This document shows positions 1,517 through 21,789 of a stretch of 21,789 nt of DNA, piece after piece. The notes under the pieces are model-generated. The model saw only the letters and a program-made list of their open reading frames with translations. It had not been told where the DNA came from and did no database searches. The stretch lies in UHGV virus genome UHGV-1607642; one strand, written 5' to 3'. Numbering within the stretch: the stretch's first letter is position 1; each line of letters opens with the position of its first letter. The stretch comes from a virus. The position numbers and the translations under genes were made by a program.

Positions 1517-3076
1517 TTACTCTCTATCCAAAACAGTGAAATCGAATGTGCTGCCAACCGGCAAGACCCCCTCGGCAAACCCAGGCGTCGTGTCGATAAT
1601 GTGTTTCCGCTCATATGAATGCGACATGAGGTATTTGTTGCTCACGTCGATGAAGTCGGTAATAAAGCACACGTTAGCCTGATTTTTCTTGGCTCGTAAG
1701 CCACGACCGACACGCTGTCTCATTTCAACTTCTGCTTTCCCGCCACCACCCAGAATCACCGCGCCTACGCTTGGAACGTCGACACCAACATCCAGAATGG
1801 TTGAACCAATGAGAACATCTATCTTGCCTGCCGCCAGACTATTAAGTTTTGCTTGTCGGGTAGTCTGGTTTGATTCTCCGTAGATGAAATCGACCTTGAG
1901 GCCACTCTCTTTCATCATTTCCATCAAGATCTGACCATGACGCTTCAGACGAACCAATGTCATACAGTTCAGACCGTGACTCTTGTACATTAGCGCTTCA
2001 CGCACAATAGCTTCGTTGCGGCCCAGATTATAGACGATGCCTAACTGATAGGCTTTCTGGTAAGCCGTGCTCATTCCAACCCGAAAATTCAGGTGTTTTG
2101 AAGCAAGTTCGGCTCTAATCCGCGCCTCATCTGGAGTGTACGCGATTTTATGATATAAAAAGTATGGTTTCGCTAAAATACCTCTGTCGATCAAATATTT
2201 CTCCGTTACTTTTATCTCGATGCGACCCGCAACGGCCATGAGACGCATATTTGCTTCAGTCGAGTCCTTCATGAACGGCGTAGCTGTCAGCGCCAGACGG
2301 TAGTCGGCATTGATGCACAACCGGGCGATGTCGTAGAAGTTAGAACCAGATGATTCGTGTGCCTCTTCCAGAATCAGCAGAGAAACGCTGGACAGGAAGC
2401 GTTTAACCAGTTCCCGGCGCTTCAGGTGGTACTGTTTTTTCTCCGGTGATGCGTCGCGCGGTGGCTCTTCGAGAAAACTGGCCAGGGTCTGCACCGTGGC
2501 AACGTTGATATGGCGCGAGACCTGGAACTCACCCGATCCAATCACCCCAACTCTCTGACCTTTCAGCCACGGCTCGCCATTCTCCGCGCGGTAGTCGATG
2601 GATTTCTGGAAGTTCTCTGCCATCTGGAACATCAGAACCGATCGCGTGGTTAAAAACAGCGTCATACGACCAATGCGAGCAGCAGCCTTACACGCTACGT
2701 TCGATTTACCGCCACCCGTCGCAATCTGGGCAATCATCATCCCTTCGCGCACCAGTGTTTCCACTGTCTGATCCTGATACGCATAGTCCGGGTTATACGG
2801 GAATGGGTTAACTACCGGGTTCGGCTTGCCCAGCGCGGGAGCTTTTTCCTTGCGCACATGCACGCATTTGATGCCAGCTTTCAGAAGGTTGGCTGCAACT
2901 GGCTTCGCAAACCCAGCCGGGAACGCGTTTTTGCTCCAGTTGAACATCGTGCTGGTTCCTTTCCAGTCCCCAGCCTCCACTTCATAGCTCAACATCTCCT
3001 GAACGAGCCGCTTCACGTTGTCATCAGCGCTAGAAATCAGCGCATTGACTGCATTCGATACAATCCGAACTGTCAT
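1517..3076 (-). CDS. SF2 DExH-box helicase family protein (519 aa)
   Basis: Motif I ATGGGKS (Walker A), motif II LILEEAHESSG (DExH), motif III LTATP, motif VI QRVGRGLR, all read directly from the translation. SD AGGAAAGAGG upstream of ATG 3076. Confidence 0.85.
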   Translation of the reverse strand: MTVRIVSNAVNALISSADDNVKRLVQEMLSYEVEAGDWKGTSTMFNWSKNAFPAGFAKPVAANLLKAGIKCVHVRKEKAPALGKPNPVVNPFPYNPDYAYQDQTVETLVREGMMIAQIATGGGKSNVACKAAARIGRMTLFLTTRSVLMFQMAENFQKSIDYRAENGEPWLKGQRVGVIGSGEFQVSRHINVATVQTLASFLEEPPRDASPEKKQYHLKRRELVKRFLSSVSLLILEEAHESSGSNFYDIARLCINADYRLALTATPFMKDSTEANMRLMAVAGRIEIKVTEKYLIDRGILAKPYFLYHKIAYTPDEARIRAELASKHLNFRVGMSTAYQKAYQLGIVYNLGRNEAIVREALMYKSHGLNCMTLVRLKRHGQILMEMMKESGLKVDFIYGESNQTTRQAKLNSLAAGKIDVLIGSTILDVGVDVPSVGAVILGGGGKAEVEMRQRVGRGLRAKKNQANVCFITDFIDVSNKYLMSHSYERKHIIDTTPGFAEGVLPVGSTFDFTVLDRE

Positions 3077-3122: not shown

Positions 3123-3140
3123 TAAGTAAGTACTTATACA
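3123..3140. repeat. Degenerate copy of the TAAGTA-N6-TACTTA element (contains perfect 10-bp palindrome TAAGTACTTA, 3127-3136)
   Basis: TAAGTAAGTACTTATACA sits in the 64-bp divergent intergenic region and abuts ATG 3141. Confidence 0.5.
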
Positions 3141-3839
3141 ATGGATTGTATCAGAATTATGGGTGTGAAAATTACGATTCTGCAGGTGGAAGTCGCGAAC
3201 CTGCGTCCGAATCCCTGGAATACCAACTCCGTTGGGGCGCAAAACTTCGAAAAACTGAAAGGCTCTATCGAAAAATTGGGCTTTTTTAAGCCAATTCTGG
3301 CGCGGGAGTTGGACGGGGGCATTTTTGAGATCCTCGGTGGTGAACACCGCTGGCGTGCCGCGATGGAGCAGGGCATTTCAACGGTTCCCGTCATCTCCGT
3401 GGGCAAAATTAACGATCTGGTGGCCAAACAGATTTCCCTCGTCGACAACGAGCGCTACGGCGAAGACGATCAGGTCGCTTTGCAGCGCTTAATCGAAGAA
3501 ATCCAGTCTGAAATCGACTACCGGTTGTCCGATATCGCCCCGTATGACGACGAAATGGCGGCAACACTCGCCAAAGCGTCCGTTACCGATCTTGAAGCGC
3601 TGGAAGCGCTCTCCCGTGGCGATGACGAGCCGGTCGATGAGGACAAACGCGAGAAAACCGAGCGAGTCGGCGCTGAACACCAGACGATGCGCTTCAAGGT
3701 GACGTTTGATGCGTCAGATCGCGTCGCCGACACCATCAAAACCATCATCAAAGAGCAGGGAATCAATACCGGTAACGAAATGGAGAACGCCGGGGAAGCC
3801 CTGGTGTGGCTGGTCGACTACTACAAGGAGCGTATGTAA
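3141..3839 (+). CDS. ParB/Srx-like N-terminal domain protein 1 (232 aa)
   Basis: ParB-type motif FEILGGEHRWRAAMEQG followed by an acidic C-terminal half. No clear SD; start could also be ATG 3159. Confidence 0.7.
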   Translation: MDCIRIMGVKITILQVEVANLRPNPWNTNSVGAQNFEKLKGSIEKLGFFKPILARELDGGIFEILGGEHRWRAAMEQGISTVPVISVGKINDLVAKQISLVDNERYGEDDQVALQRLIEEIQSEIDYRLSDIAPYDDEMAATLAKASVTDLEALEALSRGDDEPVDEDKREKTERVGAEHQTMRFKVTFDASDRVADTIKTIIKEQGINTGNEMENAGEALVWLVDYYKERM

Positions 3840-4507
3840 TGACCAAAAACTTTGAAATCGTCTATCGAAACCCGGCAGAACTCATCCCGTATGAGATGAA
3901 CGCCAAAAAACATGACGAACAGCAGATCCGCGATCTGGCGGCCGCCATCAAAAAGCGCGGTTTTGACCAGCCGATCACGGTCGACAAGCACGACGTCATC
4001 ATTACTGGCCACGGTCGTCGCGAGGCGGCTCTTCTGGCTGGTCTGGAGCGTGTGCCGGTCATTGTTCGCGACGATCTGAGCGAAGAAGAAGTGAAGGCTA
4101 AGCGTCTGGAAGACAACCGCCTGGCCAGTATTGACTACGACGCCATCAAATTGCAGCAGGAACTGGAATCCCTGGTGCTGGGCGATGTCGAGGTCTTCGG
4201 TTTTGAAGAGCGCGAGCTGAACGTGCTTGTCGGCAGCATGACCGAAGAGATGGAAACCGGCTCTCTGGTGCTCGATCTGGGCGAAGAGACGGAGCGCCAG
4301 AAGGAAGAGCACACCGAGATCAGTCGCGAAGTGGCCTCTGAAGAAGTCCGCGTCATCGACGTATTGGGCTTTAAAACGCTCCCTGCTGGCTCTGCCATTG
4401 TGGTTGGGGATTTGCTTGCCCACATGGAAGAAATCACGGGAGAGAGCGGGGTAGACGCTTTCGTGGCGTATGCGGAGAAAGTTTCTTCTGGGGAGCTGGC
4501 CGCATGA
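3839..4507 (+). CDS. ParB/Srx-like N-terminal domain protein 2 (222 aa)
   Basis: ParB-type motif VIITGHGRREAALLAG with acidic C-terminal half. ATG overlaps the upstream TAA by 1 nt (ATGTAATGA); the track ORF begins further upstream at a non-ATG codon. Confidence 0.7.
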   Translation: MTKNFEIVYRNPAELIPYEMNAKKHDEQQIRDLAAAIKKRGFDQPITVDKHDVIITGHGRREAALLAGLERVPVIVRDDLSEEEVKAKRLEDNRLASIDYDAIKLQQELESLVLGDVEVFGFEERELNVLVGSMTEEMETGSLVLDLGEETERQKEEHTEISREVASEEVRVIDVLGFKTLPAGSAIVVGDLLAHMEEITGESGVDAFVAYAEKVSSGELAA

Positions 4508-10264: not shown

Positions 10265-10286
10265 TAAGTAACGAAAAGGTATTTCT

Positions 10287-11183
10287 ATGAATCTGTGGCA
10301 AATGCTTATGGCCCGTCGTGGCCTGATGGATGTAGCCGAAGCGCATGAGCGCGGCGGCGCTGGTGGCGGTGCTCCTGCTGGAGACAATGAGCAGAGCATT
10401 CAAGACCCAGGCAAACAGGGCGAGCAAAAAGAGCAACCGAAGGGTGACGACGACGAGTATGCCGGTATGACTCAGGAAGAGTTGCTGGCAGAACTGCGTA
10501 AGTCTAAGAAAGCCGGTGCTGATCTGTTGAAAGAGAACATGAAGCGTAAGGAGAAAGAGCGCACATTGGCCGATCAGCTGGCTCAGTACGGTGATATTGA
10601 CCCGACGCGTGCTCGTCAGCTTCTCGAAGCTGAACAAGCCGCAGAAACCGCACGTCGGGAGGCGGAGCAGGCTGAACTGGAACGTCGTGGTGAGTTCGAT
10701 GCTGTGAAAAAGCAGATGATCGAAGCACACCAGACTGAACTGGCACAGCGCGACGAACGCTACTCCGCTCTGGAGAGCGAGAACGCCGCATTGAAGGCTC
10801 AACTGGTCGAAATGACTGTTGGTGTTTCCTTCAGCAGTTCTGCTTTCCTGCGTGACAAAGTTCTGATGACTCCGGCTAAGGCACGCGTTATCTACGGCTC
10901 TCATTTCGAAGTGGGTGAAGACGGTAGTGTTGTGGGCTTTGATAAGCCAGCCGGTCAGAAAGAACGTGCAGTTCTGGTTGACGGTGAAGGCAAGCCGTTA
11001 CCGTTCGAATCCGCGATTGAGCGCATTCTGCGTGCAGATCCGGAAGCTGACGCACTGTTGCGTAGCGAAGCCAAGCAGGGTGCTGGTTCCAATAGCAAAC
11101 CGACCCACAAAGTAAGCCAGCCGAAGAGCAAGTCGACTATGGATAAGTTGACCTCCGGTCTGGGAAAAATCGGACTCAAGTAA
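10287..11183 (+). CDS. Scaffolding protein (298 aa)
   Basis: Sits between portal and major capsid genes. Charged, Ala/Glu/Gln/Arg-rich helical sequence typical of scaffolds. SD AAAAGG upstream. Confidence 0.65.
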   Translation: MNLWQMLMARRGLMDVAEAHERGGAGGGAPAGDNEQSIQDPGKQGEQKEQPKGDDDEYAGMTQEELLAELRKSKKAGADLLKENMKRKEKERTLADQLAQYGDIDPTRARQLLEAEQAAETARREAEQAELERRGEFDAVKKQMIEAHQTELAQRDERYSALESENAALKAQLVEMTVGVSFSSSAFLRDKVLMTPAKARVIYGSHFEVGEDGSVVGFDKPAGQKERAVLVDGEGKPLPFESAIERILRADPEADALLRSEAKQGAGSNSKPTHKVSQPKSKSTMDKLTSGLGKIGLK

Positions 11184-11209
11184 CATCTTAAATCATAGGG
11201 AAATGAAAG

Positions 11210-12085
11210 ATGCCATTACTGCGTGATGAAGCTGAAAAGCTGTCTAATAACGAACTTGAGCAGGGTGTGATCGAGACCATCATCGATCGCGATGACCTGT
11301 TCGCTATTCTGCCTTTCATGAAGATTAATTCTAAGGCATACCTTTACAACCGCGAAGCTACCCTGAGCGAAGCTACCTTCATTGATGTGAACGACACCAT
11401 CACTGAAGGCGCAGCAACCTTCAGCGAACACGTTGCGAAGCTACGTATCCTGGCAGGCGACGTAGACGTCGACAAATTCCTGGCGACCACTATGTCCGAC
11501 ACCAACAACCAGCTGGCAATCCAGGTTCGTCAGAAGGTGAAAGGTCTGGCTCGCGCATTCCGCCGCAACCTGATTCTGGGCGACTCCAGCACCAACACCA
11601 AAGCGTTCGACGGTATTCCGAAACTGATGCACGACGATCAGAAGATCGACATCGAAGGCGCTTCCATGACCTTCTCCATGTTCGACGAACTGGTCGACGC
11701 GGTGAAAGATCTGGGTGCGGACTGCATCATGATGCGCTCCGAGCATCTGCGTGCTTATCGCGCTCTGCTGCGTACCGTTAATATCGGCCCGTCCGAAATT
11801 ATGATGGAAAACTTCGGTCGACCGATGTTGTGCCACAACGGTGTACCTTTCATCGTGAACGACTTCATCCCGACTGACGCGGGCAAAGCAAGCATCTATT
11901 GTCTGCACCTGTCCGAAGAGAACGGTGTGACCGGTCTGTATGGCGGTGAAAACGCTGGTATCGTTGTTGAGAACATCGGTACTGTTCAGAACAAAGACGC
12001 AACCCGTACCCGCGTTAAGTGGTACTGCTCTCTGGCGAACAAGCACGACAAAGCTATCGCCGCGCTGACCAATGTAAAAATTTGA
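11210..12085 (+). CDS. Major capsid protein (291 aa)
   Basis: Assigned by position after the scaffold, by size, and by the strong intrinsic terminator that follows. SD GGGAAATGAAAG upstream. Confidence 0.7.
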   Translation: MPLLRDEAEKLSNNELEQGVIETIIDRDDLFAILPFMKINSKAYLYNREATLSEATFIDVNDTITEGAATFSEHVAKLRILAGDVDVDKFLATTMSDTNNQLAIQVRQKVKGLARAFRRNLILGDSSTNTKAFDGIPKLMHDDQKIDIEGASMTFSMFDELVDAVKDLGADCIMMRSEHLRAYRALLRTVNIGPSEIMMENFGRPMLCHNGVPFIVNDFIPTDAGKASIYCLHLSEENGVTGLYGGENAGIVVENIGTVQNKDATRTRVKWYCSLANKHDKAIAALTNVKI

Positions 12086-16745: not shown

Positions 16746-19700
16746 ATGTCACAAAACGTAGAGTTTGTCCTGTCGCTGGAAGACAAGCAGTTTACAGCGT
16801 CAATCGACCGGGCGGGTAAGCTACTTACCAGATTCGGGGAGCAGGCCACAAAACCAGCTCAGAAAATTAACAATCTGGAACGCTCGTTGGGTTCGGTCTC
16901 CCGCATCATCGGCGTTCTGGAGTCCAAGCTCGATGCCACGGCAGACAAACTACAGGATGTAGCTGCCGGCTTCGAACTTGTGTCTGATGTTTCGCGCAAG
17001 ACGCGAGGCAACATTACCAGCCTCAATTCAGGTCTCAAAACCCTGATTGAGCGCGTCGACACAACCACCTCTTCCGTTAATAAGCTCACCACATCGTTGC
17101 GCAAGGTTCAGTCTGAACTCAATGAGTTTTCCGATTGGGCAACGTTCGCTGGTAAGAGCGCCAGCCGCTTCGGTACGGAGGTAAAAGAAGCCTCTACATC
17201 TGTGAGTGGTATGAATACGCGCCTTAACACCACGACGAAGCGTCTCAGTAATTGGGGTGTCACAACGAACCAGGCTGCCGAGGGGCTGAAGAAAGTCCGC
17301 GATCAGATGGATGCGGTGATTGGCCGCCAGCAGCTGATCAGCAAGCCGGTGCGTGTGCGCACCAGCGGCTACGGTGAGGGCGGTGGTAATGGCGGTGGCG
17401 GTCGACACAGCGGTTCCTATGGCCACGGCGGGCGCGGTGCTGAAAATGGCGTGTTCTCTGGTCTGCGCGGCAATATTTTCCTGCTGGGCGAGATTGGTGA
17501 TGCGGCAAGAACGGTAACTGACATCCTGTTCGGCTGGCAGAAGCCAATCGTCGAAGCTGCCTCCAAAATGGAGCGTATGCGCGTCATGTTGCGCGGGCTG
17601 AACAAGGACAAGGCCAACCCTGGCAAAGCAGCCGCAGAGGATATGCAGTACATCGTGGATATGGCGCAAAACGCCCCGTTTGCGATGCAGGCGCTGACCG
17701 ATTCCTTCGTTAAATTCCGCTCGGCAGGTCTCGATCCTACTGACGGATCGCTGAAAGCATTGGTGGACTCCGTTGCACGCTTCGGCGGCGATAGCGAGCT
17801 GCTAAAACGCGCAGCCGTGGCCGTCCAGCAGATGTCCGGTAAGGGCGTCGTGTCGATGGAAGAACTGCGTCAGCAATTAGGTGAAGCCGTTCCTAACGCG
17901 ATGAAAGCGATGGCAGACGCTGCCGGCATTACTATGGGGGAACTGACCAAAGCAGTCTCCAGCGGTACTGTGGAAGCGAAACAGGCGTTATCGCTGATGT
18001 TCGTTGGTCTGCGTGCAGAGAACGAAAACGCCGCCAAAGACATGATGCAAACCTACACCGGTGCGCTGGCGCAACTACAAACCTCCTTTACGTTGTTCGC
18101 CGATCGTGTCGGTCAGACGGGCTATCTGGATTCTCTCTCTAAGGGAATGAAAGAACTAGCCTCCATCATGAATAGCGCAGAAGGGATTTCGTTTGCTAAT
18201 TCTTTAGGTTCGGGGTTAACGACGGCAATCGATGGGTTGCGTCAGCTTGCTCAATGGTTAGCAAAGAACCAAGAGCTGGTAATTAATCTTGGTAAGGTCG
18301 TGGCCGCGATGGTTGCGTTCAAACTGATGCGAGCAGGGATCATGGGGGTAGTTGGCGCTGGGAGCCAGATGGTTAGCACCTTTGCCACGATGGCGACCGC
18401 CATACAGACTCCATTTAACCTCGGCGCTACAGCAGTAACTCGATTCAATCGTGCGGCACGTATGGGGCTGGCTCCGATCCCCTCTCTTATTTTCGCCATC
18501 CGTGGGGCGATTACGGGGCTTAAAGGCGCTTTTGCTGGATTAACGGCGTTCATTGCAGCAAATCCAATTGGCGCTGCGTTTACCGTGGCAACCGTGGCCG
18601 TGGCCGGGCTGATCACGTATATGACCATGCTTCGCAGCGAAACGTCAAAAGTCGTTGACGAAATTAGGAAAATACCAGAGGCGATGACGGCGGCCAAACG
18701 TGCACAAATGGCGGAGTATAAAGCGCGTCTTGAGCAACAAATCACGCAAAAGGAACAAGAGTTAAAATCTGACGAAAAGGTGGTTTATGGGCCGGGTATG
18801 GCCGGAACTACAGTAAAGATTAATCAGGATGAACGTAAGCGTATAGAAAATGAGCTAAATGACCTTCGTGAGAAACGCGATAAAACTACTGGGGCAATTG
18901 AACGCGGAGACACTGCTGTAGCCAAACGTCTTGCAAAAGATGCGGCAGAATCACAGATAGAGAAAATACGGGAAGAGAATAGAGACTTTGCGGCAACATT
19001 CGCTAAAGCTCGTCAAGAGGCTCTGGAGAAGATCCAAAAAATCAATGATGACGATTCACTTTCTGATGACGAAAAGAACAAACTATTGGCACCGTTACGT
19101 GAAACGGTAAACAAAAGCTATCTGGAGCCTGCGCAAAAACTGGTTGATTCACTTTCTTCTCGTAAGAATGCGACCGAGAAGCAAATCGCGACTCTTAATG
19201 ATCAGCTTGAAAAAGCCAAAAAAGATGGCAATACCGAGCAGATCCAGAAACTGCAAGGCAGTATTCGTGGTTATCAGGAGCATTTGGAAGCCGTTGCTCA
19301 GGAGCTGACTCAGGCAGAGTTCGAGAGAGATAATGCGGCCAAAACTGGTAAGGGCGTAATGTCAAACCAGGGGACTGTTCTTGGGTTAGGTACAACTGAT
19401 AAAGCTGCTCAGAAGGCGCTGGCGCAATATATGCGAAACCAGATGGATTCTGCGACTTATCAGCGTACTTTGCCTGACGGCACTCCGATGATGGACTTCG
19501 AAGGTAAGCCGATTATTGGGCCTAAACAACTCAAGACGCAGCTTAATTTGCAGAAAGCATCCAGTGCCAGCTCTCTGGAGAAAATGAGCGATGCGGAACG
19601 CGCCGCAACCATTGCAGCGCTGACCAAAGCGCGCGAACAGGATGCCGCAGCAGCGGAAAAAGCCGGGCGACGTACAGCCAATGCTTCTCAGCGTGCGGCC

Positions 19701-21317
19701 AAGAAAGAACAGGCAGCGCAACAGAAACTGGCGGCCGGATATCAGAAGGCTCTGGATAAAGCCGATCAGCTTATGGGGCAAATGGGTGAAAGCTCTAAGG
19801 CTACGGTATCGTTTGATCAGTCTCTTCGCGATACAACGAAATCGCTGACTGATTTGGCTAATGCGGTTCCTAACGAGTTCATCACTCAAGAGATGATCGA
19901 CAAGGCGAAAAAACGTCTTGAAGACCTCAAAAATGCGACACCTGAATATCGCGAGATGTTTAATCGCCGCAATGTTGAGCAGATGATCTCCACTTGGGCA
20001 CCGGAGTCGGATTCCATTATTAGTGCTGGCTATACGCCGTCTCGTGAAGAAAAAGTTGCTGATTTCGAAGACACCTACAACCGCAATCTCAAAGCGTTGA
20101 TAGAACTTCGTGATAAGGCGTCTGATCCTAAAGTTGTGGCGCTTTATACAAAGAAAATCAATCAACTGATTGCTGCTGGCAATACCGCGCTTATTAAAGA
20201 GACGGGGACTGCGACGCAGAAGTTGGCACTGGAATACGAAAACCTGGCAGAGCAGATCGAAAGCACCTGGACTGATTTGTTTAGTGGCTTAACGGATGTC
20301 CTGACTGATTTCGTTATTAACGGGAAGATGAGCTTCTCCAGCCTGTCTCAGTCCATTTTGAAAGATATCACCAATATGGTCGTGAAGTCGCAGATCACGC
20401 TGCCTCTAATGAACATGTTGGGGATGGGAACCACCGCAGCTGGTAGTTCACAGAGTGGTAATTTGCTCACCGGGGTTGCTTCCGCAGTTGCCAATCAAGG
20501 TGTGCGCATAAGCAACACTGTTAATGGCGACAAGTCGGTAGGAGAAGCCACGAAGGAGACGTCCAGTTCGGTAACTGGATTGGGGCAAACGACACAGCAG
20601 ACCACCAGCGCAATTGGCACAGCAACAAATGCGATTGGTAGCTGGGTATCAGGGCTATTTGATAGCACCGAAGCCAAAGATGCTGAGACAAAAGCAGTGA
20701 AGGATTCCATCTTCTCGATGCAGAACCTCAGCTCTGTTACCGGTGCTCTGTCTGCCGCGTTCGCAATGCTTGGAGCTAATGCTTCCGGCTCTGGTAATAA
20801 GTGGTTGAATTTCGGCGCGACAGTTGCATCTGGGTTGGTTTCAGTATGGGCAGGTGGTGGTTTCGACAGCGCGACATCAAACTCTGCTAAAACCGCAACC
20901 AGCAGTGTGGCTGACGGAACTAAAGGCATTCCTGCAATCCCGAAGTTTGCAAATGGAGGAATATTCGGAAAAGACGGCGTGATCCCGCTCCGGGCATACC
21001 AGAAAGGCGGTATTGCTAACTCGCCTCAATTAGCGTTGTTTGGGGAAGGTTCTATGAATGAGGCGTATGTTCCATTGCCTGATGGTCGAACAATCCCTGT
21101 AACGCTCAGTACCGATGGTATGAGTGGAGGAGGAAATGTTCTTTCTCCGGTATCAATTGAGATCAACGTCCATAGTGACGGTAGCACAACTGAATCCGGC
21201 GATACAGAAAGCATATGGAACAATGCCGCTCAACGGATGAAAGCAATCGCGCTTGAGACTATCGCTCAAGAGAAACGCCCTGGCGGATCACTCAACCCAA
21301 ACACTCAACGTAACTAA
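16746..21317 (+). CDS. Tail tape measure protein (1523 aa)
   Basis: Very long ORF after the G/GT pair; largely helical, low-complexity composition with a Gly-rich segment. ATG 16746 with SD AAGGGA preferred over the track's TTG at 16725. Confidence 0.9.
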   Translation: MSQNVEFVLSLEDKQFTASIDRAGKLLTRFGEQATKPAQKINNLERSLGSVSRIIGVLESKLDATADKLQDVAAGFELVSDVSRKTRGNITSLNSGLKTLIERVDTTTSSVNKLTTSLRKVQSELNEFSDWATFAGKSASRFGTEVKEASTSVSGMNTRLNTTTKRLSNWGVTTNQAAEGLKKVRDQMDAVIGRQQLISKPVRVRTSGYGEGGGNGGGGRHSGSYGHGGRGAENGVFSGLRGNIFLLGEIGDAARTVTDILFGWQKPIVEAASKMERMRVMLRGLNKDKANPGKAAAEDMQYIVDMAQNAPFAMQALTDSFVKFRSAGLDPTDGSLKALVDSVARFGGDSELLKRAAVAVQQMSGKGVVSMEELRQQLGEAVPNAMKAMADAAGITMGELTKAVSSGTVEAKQALSLMFVGLRAENENAAKDMMQTYTGALAQLQTSFTLFADRVGQTGYLDSLSKGMKELASIMNSAEGISFANSLGSGLTTAIDGLRQLAQWLAKNQELVINLGKVVAAMVAFKLMRAGIMGVVGAGSQMVSTFATMATAIQTPFNLGATAVTRFNRAARMGLAPIPSLIFAIRGAITGLKGAFAGLTAFIAANPIGAAFTVATVAVAGLITYMTMLRSETSKVVDEIRKIPEAMTAAKRAQMAEYKARLEQQITQKEQELKSDEKVVYGPGMAGTTVKINQDERKRIENELNDLREKRDKTTGAIERGDTAVAKRLAKDAAESQIEKIREENRDFAATFAKARQEALEKIQKINDDDSLSDDEKNKLLAPLRETVNKSYLEPAQKLVDSLSSRKNATEKQIATLNDQLEKAKKDGNTEQIQKLQGSIRGYQEHLEAVAQELTQAEFERDNAAKTGKGVMSNQGTVLGLGTTDKAAQKALAQYMRNQMDSATYQRTLPDGTPMMDFEGKPIIGPKQLKTQLNLQKASSASSLEKMSDAERAATIAALTKAREQDAAAAEKAGRRTANASQRAAKKEQAAQQKLAAGYQKALDKADQLMGQMGESSKATVSFDQSLRDTTKSLTDLANAVPNEFITQEMIDKAKKRLEDLKNATPEYREMFNRRNVEQMISTWAPESDSIISAGYTPSREEKVADFEDTYNRNLKALIELRDKASDPKVVALYTKKINQLIAAGNTALIKETGTATQKLALEYENLAEQIESTWTDLFSGLTDVLTDFVINGKMSFSSLSQSILKDITNMVVKSQITLPLMNMLGMGTTAAGSSQSGNLLTGVASAVANQGVRISNTVNGDKSVGEATKETSSSVTGLGQTTQQTTSAIGTATNAIGSWVSGLFDSTEAKDAETKAVKDSIFSMQNLSSVTGALSAAFAMLGANASGSGNKWLNFGATVASGLVSVWAGGGFDSATSNSAKTATSSVADGTKGIPAIPKFANGGIFGKDGVIPLRAYQKGGIANSPQLALFGEGSMNEAYVPLPDGRTIPVTLSTDGMSGGGNVLSPVSIEINVHSDGSTTESGDTESIWNNAAQRMKAIALETIAQEKRPGGSLNPNTQRN

Positions 21318-21359
21318 CTATCGACTGCCCCGACCGGGGCAGTCTCACAAGGATGTGAG

Positions 21360-21641
21360 ATGGAAAGACAAACGTTTAATTGGTATCCAGATTACGAATC
21401 TGAAAAAAGCGTAAAACCGAATGTAACGGTACTTAATTTTGGTGATGACTACGAGCAGCGACAGGCTCAAGGTCTTAATCGTATTAAAGAAGAATGGTCG
21501 TTAACCTTTACCAGATCATACAACGAAATTAATGCAATCGATGACTTCCTGACTGAGCGATCAGGCGTTGAATCGTTCTATTGGGTTAATCCAAGAGGCA
21601 AGCAGATTGTAGTTGTATGTGACAGTCATACGGTCAAGCGA
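21360..21641 (+). pseudogene. Minor tail protein, lambda gpM-like, truncated by IS insertion
   Basis: TFNW...VLNFGDDYEQRQAQGLN...ESFYW...QIVVVCD follows the recalled lambda gpM pattern (TFRW...FGDGYSQRAPAGLN...SFLW...QIKVTC). Reading frame runs into IS sequence after codon R (21639-21641); the track ORF tail to 21728 is IS-derived. Confidence 0.7.
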
Positions 21642-21789
21642 TGGATTTGCCCCTATATTTCCAGACACCTGTTATCACTTAACCCATTACTGGCCTGCTG
21701 CCGCAGATATTCCCGTGGCGAGCGATAACCCAGTGCACTATGCGGATGCCATTCGTTATAATGCTCGAACGCCTCTGCAAGGTTCTTTG
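21642..21789 (-). mobile_element. Right end of an IS2-like insertion sequence (IS3 family), inverted orientation, continuing past the window edge
   Basis: TGGATTTGCCCCTATATTTCCAGACA... is the reverse complement of the IS2 right terminal repeat as I recall it, with a few substitutions relative to that recalled sequence. Confidence 0.75.
21653..21789 (-). CDS. IS3-family transposase (OrfB / InsD-like), C-terminal fragment, partial at window edge
   Basis: Minus-strand translation gives ...[48 protein letters not shown], the conserved C-terminal signature of IS3-family integrase-core transposases. Stop TAG at 21653-21655. Confidence 0.7.

Follow-up and report, generated by a model that had tools for sequence, protein, structure and literature searches.

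Evidence that IS2 recently entered the distal tail gene of a probably tail-defective but otherwise intact SSU5-like phage-plasmid

At the right-hand end of UHGV virus genome UHGV-1607642, a phage tail gene runs directly into an insertion sequence. The window, meaning the whole 21,789-bp stretch of DNA that was analyzed, is the complete metagenome scaffold LIJI17-1_SAMEA3951697_METAG-scaffold_616, and it terminates within IS2 at position 21789 because assembly broke at a repeat, the usual kind of break. This locus raises the question of whether the tail gene is genuinely interrupted, what the interruption would do to the virion, and whether it marks a decaying element or a recent event. The original prediction, made from the sequence alone, was of an IS2-like element inserted into the gpM-like minor tail gene of a domesticated or cryptic prophage. 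Our analysis supports a different, very likely history, in which IS2 recently entered a distal tail gene of an otherwise intact SSU5-like phage-plasmid, probably leaving it tail-defective.

We read positions 21360 to 21789 directly. The tail-gene frame opens at the ATG at 21360 and runs for 122 codons to a stop at 21726-21728, and TGGATTTGCCCCTATATTTCCAGACACCTGTTATCACTTAA, from 21642, is the 41-bp IS2 right inverted repeat (IRR), which begins at exactly the base given in the original prediction. IS2 ends are imperfect inverted repeats of 41 and 42 bp (PMC3299598). All 148 bp from 21642 to 21789 were identical to copies annotated as “IS3-like element IS2 family transposase,” and this IS2 end was matched in 4373 of 5426 complete E. 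coli genomes, at a median of 3 places per genome. Translation of the minus strand from 21787 to 21653 gave the IS2 transposase C-terminus, including the peptide that had first been attributed to an IS3-family transposase, and the element as a whole lies opposite to the tail operon. What had been called IS2-like can therefore be named as IS2 itself. The boundary carries a one-base ambiguity: T21642 equals the next native base too, and native identity thus ends at 21642/21643. We assigned this base to IS2 because of the target duplication in a sister contig, L002 (ENA contig ERZ27270190 k141_13427, 32.7 kb), which came from a different assembler, as its k141 naming indicates. The features of the locus are collected in Table 1.

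Table 1. Features at the interrupted tail gene, in window coordinates.
Feature	Position	Strand	Basis
Tape measure protein gene, full length, directly upstream of the gpM-like gene	16746..21317	+	1523 aa; Pfam TMP_3, Tape_meas_lam_C
Native 5′ part of lambda-gpM-like distal tail protein gene, codons 1-94 of 111	21360..21641	+	PF05939; identity to S56 plasmid B
Chimeric ORF, 122 aa (94 native and 28 IS2-encoded residues)	21360..21728	+	Frame read-through, then stop
Target site AGCGA, left copy of the 5-bp duplication	21637..21641	.	Right copy beyond window end; both on L002
IS2 right terminal inverted repeat (IRR, 41 bp)	21642..21682	.	Direct read; matching IRL on L002
Right-hand 148 bp of IS2, cut by scaffold end	21642..21789	-	100% identity to annotated IS2
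3′ end of IS2 orfB (InsD, DDE transposase part), last 44 codons and stop	21653..21789	-	Translation

The native portion of the chimeric frame matched, at 100% identity, the opening 282 nt of a complete 336-nt gene on E. coli S56 plasmid B; in E. coli plasmids of ~110 kb, this gene is annotated as “phage tail protein.” The chimeric ORF matched Pfam PF05939 (Phage_min_tail) at 107.1 bits against a cut-off of 39, with coverage of profile positions 1-92 of 108 only, compared with 1-108 for an intact relative, so that its domain is incomplete. The placement of the insertion within a gpM-like minor tail gene was thereby confirmed. The intact protein matched lambda gpM (PDB 8IYK) over residues 4-107. 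The two share a Pfam family, a position between the tape measure gene and gpL, and a similar length (111 versus 109 aa), but the relationship is distant (E=4.6e-10), and the window additionally exchanges the last 17 residues for 28 encoded by the IS. The order tape measure, M, L, K, I, J was found in S56 plasmid B and in plasmid pTB212, and L002 has the same order with IS2 in between. The tape measure protein itself aligned ungapped with its pTB212 counterpart, at 97.6% identity.

Two adjacent hairpins, at 21323-21359, lie in the 42-nt spacer that separates the stop codon of the tape measure gene from the start of M. One has a 9-bp GC-rich stem (GACTGCCCC/GGGGCAGTC). The other, with a short CTCACA/TGTGAG stem that is predicted to fold into 5 pairs, presents the Shine-Dalgarno sequence AGGA in its loop. 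The spacer had a predicted folding energy of -25.9 kcal/mol (z=-5.8), and the same sequence was present in intact relatives; these hairpins might act as a translational or processing signal.

To which kind of element does this tail module belong? Salmonella phage SSU5 aligned with 68% of the window at 91.7% identity, and for further SSU5-like phages, of Escherichia and Klebsiella, the identity was 80-84%. Among complete E. coli records, 252 matched, all of them plasmids, with 285 places on plasmids and 0 on chromosomes. The best of these matches were 98-99% identical over 99-100% of the window, reaching 99.3%. The matching plasmids measure ~100-115 kb, with pTB212 and the EC21Z-137 plasmid in a group of ~106-115 kb; the closest relative, pTB212, is 110 kb. 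Its genes run in the order regulator, helicase, ParB-type partition, terminase, portal, capsid, tail, tape measure, M, L, K, I, J, and fibre, and the order in the window (partition genes, terminase, portal, capsid, tail) is that of pTB212. ParB-type partition genes lie at 3136-4507 of the window; the scaffold is linear and incomplete, with the replicon outside it. The ParB/RepB/Spo0J-type gene at 3136-3839 is an open frame of 232-234 aa here, and is annotated as frameshifted in pTB212. Because the E. coli matches are exclusively to plasmids and the homology is to SSU5, we regard the host element as a phage-plasmid and not as an integrated prophage; by nucleotide homology, synteny, and gene order it is an SSU5/pHCM2-type phage-plasmid of Escherichia, from a gut metagenome. 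The earlier label of prophage is therefore set aside. The difference from other elements of this type is the presence of IS2 in the distal tail protein gene, a region that is uninterrupted in nearly all PLSDB relatives (see below).

Two further observations concern the spread and content of this region. In two close relatives at 98.9% identity, the plasmids of strains BL12 and GS04 (H83 and H84), the stretch corresponding to window positions 1-21641 contains an ISKpn26 transposase, which is IS5-like; this is a further case of an IS within the conserved phage half of such an element. At ~80% nucleotide identity, the junction region from the tape measure gene through M to L also occurs in 61 Yersinia plasmid records, and Yersinia pestis pMT1-type plasmids (H121-H123, H135-H140) are among those matches.

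Gene M is essential for tail assembly in lambda, the phage in which essentiality was tested. Lambda gpM is the distal tail protein, a beta-sandwich with a topology identical to that of the tube protein N-domain, and six subunits make up a ring by which the hub of gpL and gpJ is attached to the tail tube (PMC10721106). When 19 full-length homologs with 59-86% identity to the reference homolog P0014 were aligned, the residues lost to the insertion, 17 in all, accounted for 4 of 29 invariant columns, namely G97, R106, Q107, and E110, and included the motif FRQVFE. An AlphaFold2 model of an intact homolog, of medium confidence overall (mean pLDDT 75, pTM 0.65), places residues 98-110 in the longest strand; the mean pLDDT was 92 over positions 91-100 and 80 over positions 101-110. 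According to this model, the chimeric protein would lack strand 98-110 and the end of strand 91-95, and would gain 28 unrelated residues. Because a conserved C-terminal strand is lost and lambda gpM forms the distal tail ring, the copy carrying IS2 is likely to have a tail defect. The original prediction expected a block to tail assembly: the removal of the conserved C-terminus holds and makes a defect a reasonable expectation, while the defect itself is something we infer.

An alternative reading accepts the insertion and holds that it is tolerated, such that the 94-residue core, extended by 28 IS-encoded residues, can still be assembled, or the tail can do without the protein, and infectivity is kept. 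The chimera does keep 85% of the protein, and the downstream genes are intact. We nevertheless consider this unlikely, given that the missing segment includes invariant residues and the FRQVFE motif and supplies the longest predicted strand of the sandwich. The distribution of intact alleles argues in the same direction. A 700-bp probe spanning intact M and both neighbors was uninterrupted in 414 of 416 matching complete plasmids in PLSDB, and a survey of the SSU5 group reported that IS-borne resistance genes such as blaCTX-M-15 occupied many positions, “noticeably excluding” the region of the structural genes (bioRxiv 10.1101/2025.09.12.675607). Together, these two findings point to purifying selection, by which such insertions would normally be removed.

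Other damaged alleles exist in the family, and we examined how they relate to the IS2 allele. The complete plasmid pEC7518-111k (L005, NZ_CP085184.1; 111.7 kb) has no annotated tape measure gene and matches only the last third of M, with IS1203 adjoining the J region; judged by its sequence, it appears to be a phage-plasmid that persists as a plasmid with a defective tail. In human-gut contigs from ENA (L006-L009), M codon 77 is joined to an internal point of gene I by a deletion of 1.83 kb, with the loss of gpL and gpK. This M-to-I deletion, which is also reflected in protein P0020, occurs in several assemblies, some of which are re-assemblies of the same run. Both cases belong to the same family as the window and affect the same tail-tip gene block, but they are multi-gene deletions, whereas the window has a single clean insertion with no gene loss.

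Shortened forms of the protein are also on record. Twelve further truncated proteins, 81-100 aa long and from draft assemblies of Shigella sonnei and E. coli, belong to the 90% cluster of the chimeric protein; membership of the cluster is biased toward that length, and most members are contig-end partials. Several odd-length proteins found in a separate homolog search were frameshift products. Many of the S. sonnei and E. coli draft entries (P0003-P0010) are labeled “phage tail protein, partial” and end at codons 81-89, and some lie on contigs of 107-112 kb, that is, on a whole phage-plasmid broken at the M gene. One read-through form, P0008, an S. sonnei chimera, diverges after codon 86, and a tblastn search with P0008 returned no PLSDB record covering its divergent tail. 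These entries suggest insertion of a different repeat or IS in an S. sonnei lineage. The 94-aa cluster representative, P0002, was considered as a second truncation at codon 94 and was rejected as an adapter artifact. Its contig (L010, Logan SRR28254763_3151) has the Illumina adapter AGATCGGAAGAGCGTCGTGTAGG at 2996-3026, right after native GCGATA, and the false 94-aa length arises because the contig ends in that adapter.

Tail-tip lesions therefore do recur across the family, and independent ones fall in one stretch of a few hundred bases: the IS2 insertion at codon 94, the deletion from codon 77, the loss in pEC7518-111k, and the S. sonnei divergence after codon 86, along with the draft contigs of 107-112 kb that break off in M. 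It is conceivable on this basis, though in our view improbable, that the tail-tip block M-L-K-I is a recurrent inactivation site in gut Enterobacteriaceae and that the IS2 allele is a first step from phage-plasmid to plain plasmid. We did not adopt the idea of M as a strong hot spot, which is disfavored because the complete plasmids were nearly all uninterrupted at this site; many of the truncations are, moreover, contig-end partials or frameshifts.

The original prediction read the insertion as the mark of a domesticated or cryptic element with accessory cassettes retained for host benefit, IS2 being one sign of decay. Relatives with damaged tail modules do exist, as seen in pEC7518-111k, which is missing both the tape measure gene and two-thirds of M from its 5′ end, and in the gut contigs with the M-to-I deletion. 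The state of this element speaks strongly against that reading. When 31 pTB212 proteins were compared with the window and L002 by tblastn, all but M were full length, ungapped, and 97-100% identical, and the M-like protein alone was split around IS2, into residues 1-95 and 93-111. None of the window's 25 other genes is shortened, nor are L, K, I, and J on L002, and IS2 is the only lesion seen. In addition, the flank matches intact alleles at 100% identity, and this region yielded no evidence on accessory cassettes.

The allele is also very rare. Exact look-up of the chimeric 122-aa protein recovered it from only 3 ENA metagenome contigs, of which the window scaffold is one and L002 another. 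The IS2-M junction was absent from the 5426 complete E. coli genomes and from PLSDB plasmids, and scans for the exact junction gave no match in JGI metagenomes, IMG/VR, or GTDB representative genomes, so the same junction did not appear in unrelated hosts or lineages. This rarity, the fully identical flanks, and a perfect target duplication indicate a very recent, private event. With an IS2 copy that is moreover 100% identical to active copies, a long-domesticated cryptic element is a highly unlikely explanation, and the description of the element as domesticated or cryptic is not supported.

The structure of the complete insertion was provided by L002, which agrees with the window at each of the 10,430 positions that the two share. 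L002 crosses a complete IS2 of 1331 bp (10283-11613, ending ...GGGGGCCAGTCTA), with both ends present: an IRR of 41 bp (TGGATTTGCCCC...) and an IRL of 42 bp (TAGACTGGCCCC...). AGCGA flanks the element on both sides, at 10278-10282 and 11614-11618, as a perfect 5-bp duplication. Native ...TATCAGGGGTACTG... then resumes, followed by the last 17 codons of the M gene and by full-length gpL, gpK (C40/JAB), gpI, and gpJ homologs, and no flanking DNA was lost at the insertion. Within IS2, orfA encodes 121 aa with HTH_Tnp_1, orfB encodes 301 aa with HTH_21, rve, and rve_3, and the A6G motif for the -1 frameshift, where the two overlap, is at position 409. Over all 1331 bp, the element matched IS2 copies from E. 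coli chromosomes and plasmids exactly. Compared with E. coli IS2 (IS3 family, IS2 group), the element is no different in its ends, ORFs, frameshift site, rve DDE domain, or 5-bp duplication; only the insertion site is new, its junction being absent from all collections searched.

The precise duplication and the exact resumption of the gene mark transposition and not a mis-join, and we consider it highly probable that the insertion is real, simple, and recent. L002 is probably the same sample or cohort re-assembled by another pipeline, and is not an independent biological replicate; a shared cohort is suspected from the naming patterns of the two ENA assembly series (cf. L007, L008, and L009). 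The sample may hold a mixture of interrupted and intact alleles, which read-level data could reveal.

The picture of a simple insertion rests on L002, since the window itself stops inside IS2. One could thus suppose that IS2 in the window's own molecule marks a larger rearrangement, such as a deletion or inversion between IS2 copies, with the far side of the element hidden beyond the scaffold end and IS-flanked deletions known in relatives; L002, with the same sequence, shows a simple insertion, which makes a rearrangement very improbable. Least credible of all is an assembly chimera, in which a phage-plasmid contig with an intact tail gene was falsely joined to an IS2 copy from another source in the community: a scaffold that ends inside IS2, a high-copy repeat in E. 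coli, is a classic mis-join setting, but a contig from another assembler, identical to the window wherever they overlap, spans the element and re-enters the gene at the right base, and a mis-join would not produce a target-site duplication. The parts named in the original prediction as lying beyond the scaffold end, namely the remainder of IS2, the 5-bp duplication, and the 3′ remainder of the gene, were all recovered on L002, and the mis-assembled, intact tail gene that it named as the contrary outcome was not.

We then considered the expression of the genes downstream of the insertion. The chimeric frame stops 87 bases into IS2, and 1385 untranslated bases, antisense to the transposase genes, precede the gpL start, so Rho-dependent polarity is conceivable. 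Reduced expression of L-K-I-J through 1.39 kb of antisense IS2 is thus possible, and is not required for the predicted defect. A terminator-like hairpin with a T-run (-15.2 kcal/mol, z=-3.1) lies between the M stop and the gpL start, at 11710-11732 of L002, and is also present in L001 and in intact relatives. Since intact relatives have this hairpin, expression of L through J may need read-through, antitermination, or a separate promoter, and polarity could be absent if late transcription is antiterminated. In IS3-family elements, the outward -35 sits in the IRR (PMC9330008). The IRR here faces upstream, away from the downstream tail genes, and a hybrid IS2 promoter for L is therefore not expected. 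A scan of the IS region for consensus promoters and terminators returned no more sites than shuffled sequence, and a literature search on IS2 orientation and polarity found nothing.

In the mechanism that we propose, a transposition-competent IS2 (IS3 family, copy-out-paste-in) would have entered the 111-codon gpM-like gene at codon 94/95, antisense to the tail operon, so that the IRR adjoins the 5′ gene fragment and the IRL adjoins the 3′ remainder. If the insertion in the window's molecule is simple, the left end of IS2 would be joined to AGCGATATCAGGGG. The chimeric protein, without its last conserved beta-strand, would fail to form the hexameric ring that joins the tail tip (the L/J hub) to the tube. 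This copy would then replicate and partition as a plasmid, and would give no infectious tailed particles unless it recombined with, or was complemented by, an intact relative.

The insertion is an ordinary IS2 event, already known in kind, and involves no new type of system, nor is it a sign of domestication. Its significance beyond annotation is small, and it explains the break point of the scaffold. For annotation, the scaffold should be labeled as a fragment of an SSU5-like phage-plasmid with an IS2-interrupted distal tail gene, and not as a decayed chromosomal prophage. More generally, truncated “partial” tail proteins in databases have varied causes, including IS insertion, deletion, frameshift, and adapter contamination. 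For phage-plasmids, the landing of one IS in a small essential tail gene may plausibly begin the conversion to a non-transmissible plasmid.
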